From contig JBBRVU010000002.1 of NCBI GenBank assembly GCA_038246575.1, positions 4,613 to 68,612 on the forward strand: 64,000 bases of DNA, in the 5' to 3' direction. This document shows, one piece after another, positions 62,334 through 63,932 of this stretch. The stretch comes from Actinomycetes bacterium (GTDB taxonomy: Bacteria; Actinomycetota; Actinomycetes; JACCUZ01). The notes beneath the pieces are model-generated. The model saw only the letters and a list, made by a program, of their open reading frames with translations. It was not told the origin of the DNA and did no database searches. The position numbers and the translations under genes were made by a program. Each line of letters begins with the position of its first letter. Within the stretch, counting starts at the first letter, position 1.

Positions 62334-63932
62334 CTAGATGGCCGGGACGTCGTGGTCTGGGCCGCCGAGCTGGCGCAGCGAGTTGGCGATCACTCGCCAC
62401 GCCGGTGTGGCGCGCTCGGCGGCGTCACAGCTGGCGGCGAAGTCGCGAAGCTTGCTGCGCAGCGACCGTTCGGCCCCGGACAGCACTCCGTCGTACTCGG
62501 GCGCCAGCAGGTAGGTCTGGCTATCGGAGGCGTGCGCCAGCAGGCAATCGAGGAAGATCTCAAGGAGCCTCGCCGCCTCCGGCATGGGCTCCTGTGCGGA
62601 ATCGTGGTCGGCGTCGGCCGCGGACGAGTCGGTCATCGGCAGCAGGTCGAGGCTGTCGGCCCAGACGCGGCGCTGCAGGTCATCGCTGTCGAGGACCAAG
62701 GCGGTTCCGAACGAGGCACCCGTCCGGCGACGGTCGGGCATCGCACGGCGCACGTCGTGCACGATCGCGTGGAAGTGGTCGTCGGTCAGCCCGAAGCCGA
62801 CGAACAGCAGGTGATGGGTGATCAGCAACGCCTTCACGATCGCGGACAGTGCCTCCCGATTGGCGCCGTAGCCCAGGTAGTCGTCGCGGGTGAGCACGAT
62901 GCTGCTGGGGTCGGTCACGCTGCCGTGCAGCTTCAGTAGCCACCGGTCCCCGGCCGCAGCTGAGGCCTCGGGCAGCACGGCAACCCGGTGGCCGGCGTCC
63001 GCCGAGGCGATCTCGAAGAGCCGGTCGTAGTTTAGGGTGACGGCCTGGGTGACCGGCAGAGTCGCGAGCAGAGCCGGCGCCAGCCCGTAGCGGTCGCGGT
63101 CGACCGCGGCGACGACCGTGGCACCGAAGTCGAGACCCTGCTCCTGAAACAATTCGCGCAGGACATGCCCCTGGTCCAAGACGTCGAGCTCGCCCAGCTG
63201 GTGGCGTTGTGTCCCCGTCAGCTCGGCGGTCACGGCCAGCTGGTCGATGAGCTTGGCCCAGGTGGGCAACCCGGCGCTGACGCTCACCCCTGCGCCCATG
63301 AACGGCACGAGACGGCCCTGGGCTGCCACCGCGGCCAGCTCCTCGGCCTTCCCTCGCAGCCGCGGACTCAGATCCGGCCACGGTTCCGGGGCATCGGCCC
63401 GCTTCCGCTGCGCCTGGGTCAGGGCAAGGTCGGACTCCGACCACAAGACCAGCGCGACGTCGACACCGACCTCAGTGGCCGCGTCCCGGGCAGCGGTGAT
63501 CACCTCGAGGAGCACGGCACCCCGCTGCGGGCCGCCTCCCCCCGCGCCGGTGGCGAACGCCGGCATCCCCAGCAACGGCACCGAACGGTCGGTCATCCGG
63601 TCCCGAGCCGCAACCGCGGCCGCTGCCGTCGTGACGAACGCCCGCACGGCGGGGCGCACATCGGCAGGGTCCAGCACGCCGTCGAGCGGGACGGCTGTCA
63701 GCACCGGCAGCGGGTCACCACCCGGCCAGTCCACCATGGCGGTGGCCAGGTGCTCCCCGGACCCGAACCGCGGCGTACTGCCCCTGGCCGTCTCGATGGC
63801 TTGCCGAAGCCCGGGAACGGCGTCGTACCAGGGGTCTTCCACGGTGTAGGTCGTGTCTCCGGGCAGCAGCCATGCATCGCACATGAAGTGGGTCAGGTTC
63901 CCGCGGAAGACGAACAGGTGCGATGGCGGCAT
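62334..63932 (-). CDS. SIR2-family (SIR2_2/defence-type) protein with N-terminal macro-like domain
   Basis: SIR2_2 motifs LVPFMGAGVSVSAGLPTWAKLI, TLNYDRLFE, LLKLHGS, VLTRDDY and LLFVGFGLTDDHF. The N-terminal ~185 aa align in order with macrodomain landmarks (LFVFRGNLTHFMCDAWLLPGD ; VLTAVP ; VPLLGMPAFATGAGGGGP ; VALVLWSESD). RBS GGGAGGA. Confidence 0.8.
   Translation of the reverse strand: MPPSHLFVFRGNLTHFMCDAWLLPGDTTYTVEDPWYDAVPGLRQAIETARGSTPRFGSGEHLATAMVDWPGGDPLPVLTAVPLDGVLDPADVRPAVRAFVTTAAAAVAARDRMTDRSVPLLGMPAFATGAGGGGPQRGAVLLEVITAARDAATEVGVDVALVLWSESDLALTQAQRKRADAPEPWPDLSPRLRGKAEELAAVAAQGRLVPFMGAGVSVSAGLPTWAKLIDQLAVTAELTGTQRHQLGELDVLDQGHVLRELFQEQGLDFGATVVAAVDRDRYGLAPALLATLPVTQAVTLNYDRLFEIASADAGHRVAVLPEASAAAGDRWLLKLHGSVTDPSSIVLTRDDYLGYGANREALSAIVKALLITHHLLFVGFGLTDDHFHAIVHDVRRAMPDRRRTGASFGTALVLDSDDLQRRVWADSLDLLPMTDSSAADADHDSAQEPMPEAARLLEIFLDCLLAHASDSQTYLLAPEYDGVLSGAERSLRSKLRDFAASCDAAERATPAWRVIANSLRQLGGPDHDVPAI

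Follow-up and report, generated by a model that had tools for sequence, protein, structure and literature searches.

A cryptic, structurally predicted macrodomain paired with a defense-class SIR2 domain in a large bacterial protein family

SIR2 NADases, which consume nicotinamide adenine dinucleotide (NAD+), are among the commonest effectors of abortive infection, and the central question for each of them is what switches it on. Here, we describe Macro-SIR2, a 532-residue protein encoded on the minus strand at positions 62334–63932 of a 64,000-nucleotide (nt) stretch of DNA from an Actinomycetes bacterium (GenBank assembly GCA_038246575.1, contig JBBRVU010000002.1, positions 4,613–68,612), referred to as the window in the following. 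The protein joins an N-terminal domain with the predicted fold of a macrodomain to what appears to be an intact SIR2 domain of the defense class. In our preferred interpretation, to which we assign a probability of roughly 0.5, Macro-SIR2 is a single-polypeptide NADase that is gated by an ADP-ribose (ADPr)-type ligand and acts as a stand-alone system of anti-phage abortive infection.

SIR2 NADase effectors with a fused nucleotide sensor are known; what is notable here is that the macrodomain is cryptic, that the family is large and autonomous, and that it is linked to genes with an ADP-ribosylation theme. The putative trigger module of a multi-phylum family with more than 1,200 sequence clusters would be a macrodomain that no sequence library recognizes, and the annotations of the homologs say no more than ‘SIR2 family protein’ or ‘SIR2 family NAD-dependent protein deacylase’. 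Defense-system finders, which now see a ‘SIR2 family protein’, could gain a new profile seeded with the family alignment.

Domain architecture of Macro-SIR2

The open reading frame (ORF) starts with an ATG codon and ends with a stop codon at 62334–62336, while the plus-strand frame over the same interval is riddled with stops. An initial annotation of the window had proposed a coding sequence in this interval without giving its strand, and the ORF list, 690 full-length homologs and a full-length AlphaFold2 model all identify it as a real gene on the minus strand. Its start is well placed, since M1 and H5 are kept in at least 95% of diverse homologs and a Shine–Dalgarno sequence (GGGAGG) is located 8–13 nt upstream of the ATG. 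The full-length model (pLDDT, short for predicted local distance difference test, 89.2; predicted template-modeling score, pTM, 0.91) suggests that the two domains pack as one compact unit with a fixed inter-domain arrangement.

The N-terminal domain (residues 1–178; 63399–63932, minus strand) had been described as macro-like in the initial annotation, and structural comparisons agree. An AlphaFold2 model of residues 1–192 (pLDDT 90.3, pTM 0.88) is structurally similar to solved macrodomains, the fold of which is a three-layer α/β/α sandwich with the macro strand order: a Foldseek search against the PDB yielded 99 matches at E ≤ 1e-3, with template-modeling (TM) scores of 0.5–0.63 and a probability of 1.00. 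The best 50 of these 99 are all macrodomains or macrodomain-derived chains, and the matches listed include macroH2A1.1, E. coli YmdB, Oceanobacillus MacroD (OiMacroD), alphavirus nsP3, human MacroD2 and, at rank 37, the macro-fused SirTM of Fusarium (8rsn). SPX entries, which are presumably fusions to a macro carrier, and designed serine hydrolases, which we take to be designs on a macro scaffold, are also found among them. Likewise, the top Foldseek matches in a viral structure library are macrodomains. We considered a TIR, SLOG or Rossmann identity and rejected it, because none of these folds is found among the 50 matches listed.

The sequence of this domain is cryptic. Profiles from Pfam, NCBIfam and PADLOC give no match to residues 1–196; the Pfam Macro families PF01661, PF14519 and PF20016 match neither the window protein nor 30 homologs, even at E ≤ 10; and phmmer finds no match for the domain in the PDB. 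A family hidden Markov model (HMM) built from 30 members has its best PDB match in the macroH2A macrodomain of Capsaspora (7ny6), at a marginal E-value of 0.025, where the HMM segment ‘vfvtmgdlthlkcDAWllPtD’ is aligned with ‘LYVVNGDLTEVRCDAVVHPTN’, the β1-loop-β2 signature of macrodomains. Comparisons with YmdB and macroH2A1.1 in hhalign gave probabilities below 4% and aligned the β1 motif alone. Because membership in Macro cannot be claimed from sequence, we assign the fold from the predicted structure: according to the model, the N-terminal domain is a macrodomain at the level of its fold, while judging from these profile searches its sequence has diverged too far for a place in any of the Macro families.

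To describe conservation, we used 93 diverse representatives with 27–48% identity to the query, to which the following percentages refer, and a second set of 50 close homologs. The best-conserved residues of the N-terminal domain are H5, F7, G11, D12, C18-D19-A20-W21, P24, D26, W35, P124, G127, G131, G132, G138, D158 and R176. Many of them belong to two motifs. The β1-loop-β2 motif, G11-N12-L-T...D19-A-W-L-L-P-G-D26 (63855–63902, minus strand), has the family consensus GD[LI]T-x4-CDAWLLPTD and is the counterpart of the macro ‘GDIT...DAIVNAAN’ segment, with D12 (88%), D19 (95%), W21 (94%), P24 (96%) and D26 (84%) as conserved positions; D26 takes the place of the second Asn in ‘NAAN’. The alignments put this motif in register with DLTEVRCDAVVHPTN in the macroH2A macrodomain of Capsaspora (7ny6) and, at an hhalign probability below 4%, with GDITKLAVDVIVNA in YmdB. 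The glycine-rich loop, P124-A-F-A-T-G-A-G-G132 (63537–63563, minus strand; consensus P-x-[FV]-G-T-G-x-G-G), follows strand 120–124 and occupies the position of the macrodomain phosphate-binding loop 2, with P124 (100%), G127 (92%), G131 (92%) and G132 (97%) as conserved positions. In canonical macrodomains, the loop after the central strand is the pyrophosphate-binding site. Residues 131–133 form the sole low-confidence stretch of the N-terminal model (pLDDT < 50), as would be expected for a mobile ligand loop. Family-wide, candidates for the GD[IL]T-type Asp, which contacts adenine in macrodomains, and for phosphate loop 2 are found at the expected positions, with N12 and A127 as the respective residues of the window protein. 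By analogy, the conserved positions in the two motifs would be those where known macrodomains bind ADPr (PMC11204291).

All four segments that had been quoted as macrodomain landmarks in the initial annotation are indeed present in the order given there, and they fall on macro-type secondary-structure elements of the AlphaFold2 model: FRGNLTHFMCDAWLLPGD on strands 6–10 and 20–25, VLTAVP on strand 75–80, MPAFATGAGGGGP on strand 120–124 and the flexible loop, and VALVLWSESD on strand 158–163. We also find, as had been noted, that the canonical NAAN...GGG motif is missing. After DAWLLPGD, the chain runs straight into TTYTVEDPW and a helix (with W35), and both the alignments and the model lack the MacroD catalytic loop 1, N-x(6)-G-G-[VLI]-D, which follows ‘NAAN’. 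Without this hydrolase loop, a binding role is favored over hydrolysis, so that the domain is probably a non-hydrolytic ligand-binding module in the manner of macroH2A1.1 or of the macro receptor in ThsA (PMC11204291).

The second part of the protein harbors the SIR2_2 (‘SIRim’) NADase core (residues 198–433; 62634–63341, minus strand), which is identified by Pfam, PADLOC, PDB matches and Foldseek alike. Pfam finds SIR2_2 (PF13289) alone, at residues 297–423 (E = 4e-29, 102 bits against a cutoff of 24.5). The best PADLOC model is the SIR2 half of ThsA (residues 205–404, E = 5.5e-27, profile positions 19–218 of 478), with weaker matches to LmuA, Dsr1/2 and candidate systems. In a PDB sequence search, where the matches to DSR2, ThsA and KomC cover residues 198–405, DSR2 is closest (E = 4e-18), accompanied by KomC-type sirtuins and ThsA and, more distantly, FAM118B, and Foldseek searches with the full-length model return DSR2 (E = 1.5e-13), BcThsA (8bto, E = 5e-13) and KomC, all with E-values around 1e-13. 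These nearest solved relatives of the SIR2 part are phage-triggered NADases.

The alignment with DSR2 also shows that the catalytic residues, which the initial annotation had presumed, are in place. The NAD-binding motif G213-A-G215 (FMGAGVS; 63288–63296, minus strand), in which both Gly are 100% conserved, is aligned with FVGAGVS of DSR2. Counted from this alignment, the catalytic Asn301 (TLNYD; 63030–63032, minus strand) corresponds to N133 of DSR2 and the catalytic His336 (LLKLHGS; 62925–62927, minus strand) to H171. G213, G215, N301, D303 and H336 are invariant in the 50 close homologs and conserved to 97–100% in the 93 representatives (98% for N301, 97% for H336); in the PDB search mentioned above, the chains of the DSR2 H171A mutant score 4.6 bits below wild type. 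Direct reading of the sequence gives three Cys in 532 residues and no CxxC pair, so that there is no Zn-binding tetrad, the absence of which separates sirims from canonical sirtuins (bioRxiv 10.1101/2024.09.18.613514). From the SIR2_2 match, the kept catalytic residues and the likeness to DSR2, ThsA and KomC, we infer that this part of Macro-SIR2 is an intact SIR2_2/SIRim domain of the defense class.

The remaining residues (434–532; 62337–62633, minus strand) constitute a C-terminal helical region with helices at 450–521 in the AlphaFold2 model. It contains the motif R455-x-L-E-I-F-L-D462, of which R455, L461 and D462 are each conserved to at least 93%. A C-terminal SLOG domain was considered for this region and rejected, as the model is all-helical and the ThsA profile matches the SIR2 half alone.

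The Macro-SIR2 family and its known relatives

In a full-length search, we found 690 homologs, most of them with 45–67% identity over approximately 98% of the length, which come chiefly from Arthrobacter, Pseudarthrobacter, Cryobacterium and related Actinomycetota. A profile of the N-terminal domain, searched against 1.84 billion proteins, retrieved 1,223 cluster representatives at 50% identity, 805 of them at E ≤ 1e-10. Nearly all of the best 150 representatives are 500–550 residues long and carry the domain at their N-terminus. Among ten carriers of atypical length, eight have a SIR2_2 domain and two show no effector-domain match; an effector domain of another kind is found in none of the ten. 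The macro-like domain and SIR2_2 therefore appear to form a near-exclusive pair, and we rejected the idea of a promiscuous sensor that is shared by different effectors. A scan of one genome per species yielded 80 full-length loci from Actinomycetota, Myxococcota, Eremiobacterota/Vulcanimicrobiota, Chloroflexota, Burkholderiales and Acidobacteriota, whereas plasmid and phage collections contain no full-length homolog and only matches to the SIR2 domain. Given the 690 homologs, the 1,223 representatives and landmark residues that rank with the most conserved ones of the family, the sequences speak for a real family and not for a chance pattern.

Some proteins have extended architectures. In P0130 and P0140, a DUF429 domain, which has an RNase H-like fold, is fused N-terminally to Macro-SIR2, and P0157, P0225 and P0150 each contain at least two Macro-SIR2 units in tandem on one polypeptide.

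Several characterized systems share features with this family. ThsA of type I Thoeris resembles Macro-SIR2 in its SIR2_2 domain, being the best PADLOC match and a strong structural match, and in the logic of fusing a nucleotide-binding regulatory domain to a SIR2 NADase on a single polypeptide of roughly 480–530 residues. In ThsA, however, it is a C-terminal SLOG domain that gates SIR2, whereas the regulatory domain of Macro-SIR2 would be an N-terminal macrodomain. Moreover, no ThsB/TIR signal generator is linked to Macro-SIR2: ThsB has no match among the window neighbors, and no TIR domain is found among the 25 families listed for 125 immediate neighbors. We therefore rejected an assignment to Thoeris, for which both the SLOG domain and a linked TIR gene are missing, and a TIR-made 3'cADPR is unlikely to be the ligand. 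In type II Thoeris, the macrodomain of ThsA (TM-Macro; EcThsA) is the receptor of an ADPr-derived immune signal; it and the N-terminal domain of Macro-SIR2 are both divergent macrodomains, with OiMacroD, macroH2A1.1 and Af1521 as their nearest structural relatives (PMC11204291). The effector part of this ThsA, however, consists of paired N-terminal transmembrane helices, and the system needs ThsB, whereas in Macro-SIR2 the effector is a SIR2 domain and the macrodomain starts at residue 1; the ThsA_Macro family (PF20016) gives no match to the N-terminal domain.

DSR2, the closest solved relative by sequence and fold, retains the two catalytic residues as described above and is also a single-gene, NAD+-depleting abortive-infection system. 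It differs in its length of about 1,000 residues, in its C-terminal helical-repeat sensor for a phage tail-tube protein and in having no macrodomain. Accordingly, the NCBIfam model Dsr2 (NF041819) scores only 12.9 bits against a cutoff of 1400, and with its 532 residues Macro-SIR2 does not qualify as a DSR2. SirTM-macro systems and fungal Mfs1 (8rsn) pair a macrodomain with a member of the sirtuin superfamily as well, in Mfs1 even on one polypeptide. SirTM, however, belongs to a separate sirtuin subfamily that ADP-ribosylates proteins, a mark that the macro hydrolase reverses, while Macro-SIR2 has a SIR2_2 domain and lacks the hydrolase loop.

The same domain pair occurs in eukaryotes: the ‘clade C’ sirims are SIRim-Macro fusions that are reported to group with the ThsA-like sirims of bacteria (Bonhomme et al., bioRxiv 10.1101/2024.09.18.613514), and the tree of a FAM118 study labels some SIR2_2 proteins ‘Macro’ (PMC12700824). 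These are eukaryotic proteins or unlabeled leaves, which we liken to Macro-SIR2 by domain class and without implying orthology. Consequently, the pairing of SIRim/SIR2_2 and Macro is already catalogued, while the size of the bacterial family, the near-exclusive pairing and the genomic linkage described below are not part of these accounts. With the domain pair found on both sides, a bacterial mechanism could carry over to the eukaryotic proteins.

Linkage to ADP-ribose-related genes and the proposed mechanism

We clustered all ORFs located up to 6 kb from Macro-SIR2 in 85 loci and found three recurrent families: NrtR (36 of 85), a fusion of ADP-ribosylglycohydrolase (ARG) and a DSPc phosphatase (ARG-DSPc; 34 of 85) and ARPP-1 (27 of 85). 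This NrtR/ARG/ARPP module lies within a few kb of Macro-SIR2 in 39 of 84 loci and comes in at least three rearranged orders, namely convergent with NrtR, convergent with ARG, where the 3' ends overlap by about 20 nt, and co-directional from ARG to Macro-SIR2, with gaps of 27–57 bp. That the linkage survives rearrangement argues for a functional tie. With the exception of a single ARPP-1 case, it is seen in Actinomycetota only; members from Myxococcota, Eremiobacterota, Chloroflexota, Burkholderiales and Acidobacteriota lack neighbors from this module. Outside Actinomycetota, there is no recurrent partner, and the neighbors are mixed (YegS-like kinase, SPFH, DEAD-MZB helicase, STK-AAA, patatin). 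In Arthrobacter gengyunqii (L002 9226–9926), nothing but short remnants of ARPP-1 (73 residues) and ARG is found upstream of an intact Macro-SIR2 gene, so that the module decays here while the SIR2 gene stays.

In the window, two members of the module are present. The NrtR-like regulator (60519–61232, plus strand; the longest ORF begins at 60393) comprises a Nudix sensor and a winged helix, as identified by the Pfam families NUDIX and NrtR_WHD, while its match to the NCBIfam model NtrR (E = 3e-19) stays below the cutoff of that model. By direct reading, its Nudix box is degenerate, with RALRDK instead of REUxEE, which suggests a non-catalytic sensor. Divergent from it is ARPP-1 (59555–60400, minus strand; longest ORF to 60544), with a Pfam match to PF20208 at E = 9e-57. 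The intergenic region between the two contains an AT-rich palindrome (60412–60464) with 26-nt arms that are 81% complementary; TTAGCGCA occurs twice in it and nowhere else in the window. It is a plausible candidate for the NrtR operator. As it is confined to this intergenic region, we rejected an NrtR operator shared with Macro-SIR2, and the sequence of this locus does not support co-regulation of Macro-SIR2 by NrtR.

The neighboring genes resemble the ARG-centered systems of Iyer, Burroughs, Anantharaman and Aravind (2022), which consist of an NrtR/WYL regulator, ARG, a rhodanese-phosphatase and ARPP, carry variable Macro, NADAR or nuclease accessories and are predicted to counter viral ADP-ribosylation (PMC9503650). 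The window has the NrtR-like regulator and ARPP-1 in common with them, but not the ARG core gene, and the gene linked here encodes a SIR2 NADase. As those systems were chosen for their lack of a linked ADP-ribosyltransferase or sirtuin, a SIR2 linkage falls outside their description (PMC9503650).

Beyond this module, the surroundings are those of a defense island. In a random sample of 85 large neighbors, strong matches include type IIG and type IV restriction enzymes, a DISARM methylase, DndC, ZacC, GajB-like helicases and NERD-UvrD, and the neighbors of Macro-SIR2 vary between related genomes. On this basis, Macro-SIR2 appears to be a resident of defense islands that can act alone. Together with the SIR2_2 match and the best matches to ThsA, DSR2 and KomC, these neighbors justify the label ‘defense-type’ that the SIR2 domain had been given in the initial annotation.

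In the mechanism that we propose, the SIR2 domain would be an NAD+ glycohydrolase that is held inactive, and the divergent macrodomain would serve as its regulatory ligand-binding module. No signal-generating partner is encoded, and the activating cue must therefore come from the phage or from the ADPr metabolism of the host: it could be ADPr in free form, one of its derivatives or a macromolecule carrying ADPr that arises during infection. Once the ligand is bound, the NADase would be active, probably owing to altered oligomerization of the kind known from ThsA, DSR2, KomC and FAM118B, and the resulting collapse of NAD+ would abort the infection. In Actinomycetota, the ADPr-sensing NrtR-like repressor, ARPP-1 and the ARG-phosphatase plausibly generate, shape or clear the ligand and tie expression to ADPr. 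While the gene, the intact catalytic residues, the pairing of the domains and the genomic setting are observed, we infer that the enzyme is an NADase and not a transferase, that its macrodomain binds a ligand, that this binding activates it and that the gene has a defense phenotype.

A number of points weigh against this proposal. The macro assignment is based on a predicted structure with moderate TM scores of about 0.6 and root-mean-square deviations of 4–5 Å, and membership fails at the sequence level. At positions 12 and 127, where 88% and 92% of the relatives have Asp and Gly, the window protein has Asn and Ala, and its ligand affinity may differ from theirs. Furthermore, the invariant and family-specific residues W21, D26, W35, D158 and R176 could form a new catalytic site. 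Free ADPr is itself a product of the NADase, so that the switch would amplify itself; plain ADPr is an awkward trigger for this reason, and the true ligand is more likely a derivative or conjugate. A tblastn search of the window finds no ARG-DSPc homolog, and no NrtR-type palindrome is found upstream of Macro-SIR2. Finally, we found no description or test of the bacterial Macro-SIR2 family in the literature.

Other explanations can be drawn from the same data. Macro-SIR2 might not act alone, but as the effector arm of a multi-gene anti-ADP-ribosylation system with NrtR, ARPP-1 and the ARG-phosphatase, which we regard as conceivable but unlikely. Here, ARG would strip from host proteins the ADPr that phage transferases have placed there. 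Once released, this ADPr or its phospho-derivative would derepress NrtR and be read by the macrodomain, and SIR2 would remove NAD+, the substrate of the viral transferases. The proximity of the module in nearly half of the loci, its several orders and its sometimes operon-like spacing fit such a system, all components of which handle ADPr, and in the prediction of Iyer et al., viral ADP-ribosylation is countered by the ARG/ARPP/NrtR core, which can carry variable effectors and Macro domains (PMC9503650). Yet this system would be limited to Actinomycetota, with the one ARPP-1 exception, the window has neither the ARG-phosphatase nor an NrtR-type palindrome in front of Macro-SIR2, and, as stated above, a sirtuin is not part of the published description. 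Alternatively, the macrodomain could be a brake or product handler that mediates feedback inhibition by ADPr, an autoinhibition that is relieved by a phage protein, or the trimming of an ADP-ribose-1''-phosphate (ADPR-1''P)-like derivative. The compact, high-confidence packing of the full-length model would suit an intramolecular lock, an upstream signal-making enzyme such as TIR is missing, and the trigger of DSR2, whose sequence is closest among the solved SIR2 proteins, is a phage protein and not a nucleotide; for the trimming variant, there is a precedent in macrodomains that can dephosphorylate ADPR-1''P (bioRxiv 10.64898/2026.01.28.702374). The concentration of conserved residues at nucleotide-loop positions, rather than over a broad surface, makes us doubt this reading, although sequence alone cannot tell it from the activation model.

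The pairing of macrodomains and sirtuins is a hallmark of SirTM systems, and the initial annotation had accordingly offered, as a second option, a SirTM-like, self-reversing ADP-ribosyltransferase. In such a protein, SIR2 would modify a protein or nucleic acid and the macrodomain would hydrolyze the mark, so that toxin and antidote reside in one chain. The Fusarium SirTM macrodomain (8rsn) is among the Foldseek matches, the linked ADP-ribosylglycohydrolase could be a second eraser, and D19 and D26, both acidic and invariant, might serve in catalysis. This option nevertheless loses ground and seems improbable to us: Pfam gives PF13289 alone and thus neither a SirTM nor a canonical class, the PDB sequence search returns no SirTM, the best structural matches are NADases, the macrodomain has no MacroD-type loop 1, and GcvH-L and LplA2, the usual partners of SirTM, are not among the neighbor families listed. 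We attach hardly any weight to the notion of a housekeeping enzyme of NAD+/ADPr metabolism under NrtR control and apart from phage defense. NrtR regulators classically control genes of NAD metabolism, and this link as well as the deacylase annotation are in line with it. Against it stand the missing Zn Cys tetrad, the lack of a canonical SIR2 Pfam match, the varying neighbors and a chromosomal context dominated by restriction, helicase-nuclease and other defense genes, along with the 12-fold enrichment of the SIRim clade as a whole in defense neighborhoods (bioRxiv 10.1101/2024.09.18.613514).

Returning to a ligand-gated NADase, its linkage in Actinomycetota represents a concrete, testable tie between immunity by NAD+ depletion and ADP-ribosylation warfare, and it could explain what ARPP and the predicted ARG-centered systems do. 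Tentatively, and with considerable reservation, one may go further and regard Macro-SIR2 as a sensor of ADP-ribosylation, in which the macrodomain reads the marks of phage ADP-ribosyltransferases, or the ADPr or phospho-ADPr released by the ARG-phosphatase or ARPP, and SIR2 destroys NAD+. If true, this would be the first ‘guard’ of a viral post-translational modification that is wired directly to NAD+ depletion, and it would supply the missing effector for ARG/ARPP/NrtR systems that so far exist only in silico.

Local context and lineage-specific neighbors

Between the NrtR-like regulator and Macro-SIR2, the window contains an orphan ORF of 333 residues (61266–62267, plus strand), which is an insertion in this locus; it has no match in Pfam, NCBIfam or PADLOC and no homolog in the other 84 loci. 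On the far side of ARPP-1, a low-GC insert (48000–59400; approximately 62% GC against a background of approximately 73%) encodes an HKD(PLD)+Snf2 helicase (50283–53546; PADLOC C3a139, E = 3e-117) and a complete type III restriction–modification pair (Mod 54253–56262, Res 56268–59348). About 200 bp separate the end of the insert from the 3' end of ARPP-1; at this place, related loci carry the ARG-phosphatase gene, which the insertion may have displaced here.

Beyond position 64000 of the window, Macro-SIR2 is flanked by two genes divergent from it (L001 361–5413). One encodes a 1,099-residue protein with an RNase H-like part and an SF1 helicase, the C-terminal part of which matches Mokosh MkoA/MkoC (E = 4e-35), the other a 537-residue DUF7662 + GIY-YIG protein; together, they probably represent another defense system. 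Directly upstream of the Macro-SIR2 ribosome-binding site and beyond the window edge (L001 5485–5508), there is a perfect 8-nt inverted repeat, CGGAAGAA-N8-TTCTTCCG, which occurs in no other fetched locus. A scan for consensus promoters and terminators between 59.3 and 64 kb found none.

Other neighbors are specific to certain lineages. In metagenome-assembled genomes of Eremiobacterota and Burkholderiales (L050 712–1617, L058 6105–7010, L059 9084–9992), a YegS/DAGK-type kinase of 301 residues, with an NAD-kinase-like fold, ends exactly at the start of Macro-SIR2, and the two genes look operonic. A 688-residue SPFH protein is found downstream in L050, L056 and L058 (as identified by Pfam for the L058 copy), and either this protein or the kinase may be a lineage-specific partner. 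In eight Pseudarthrobacter/Arthrobacter loci (e.g. L004 9349–9948), a DUF7255 protein of about 200 residues is encoded directly upstream of Macro-SIR2 and in the same direction, and in six loci a GIY-YIG-like gene of 295 residues overlaps the 3' end of Macro-SIR2.

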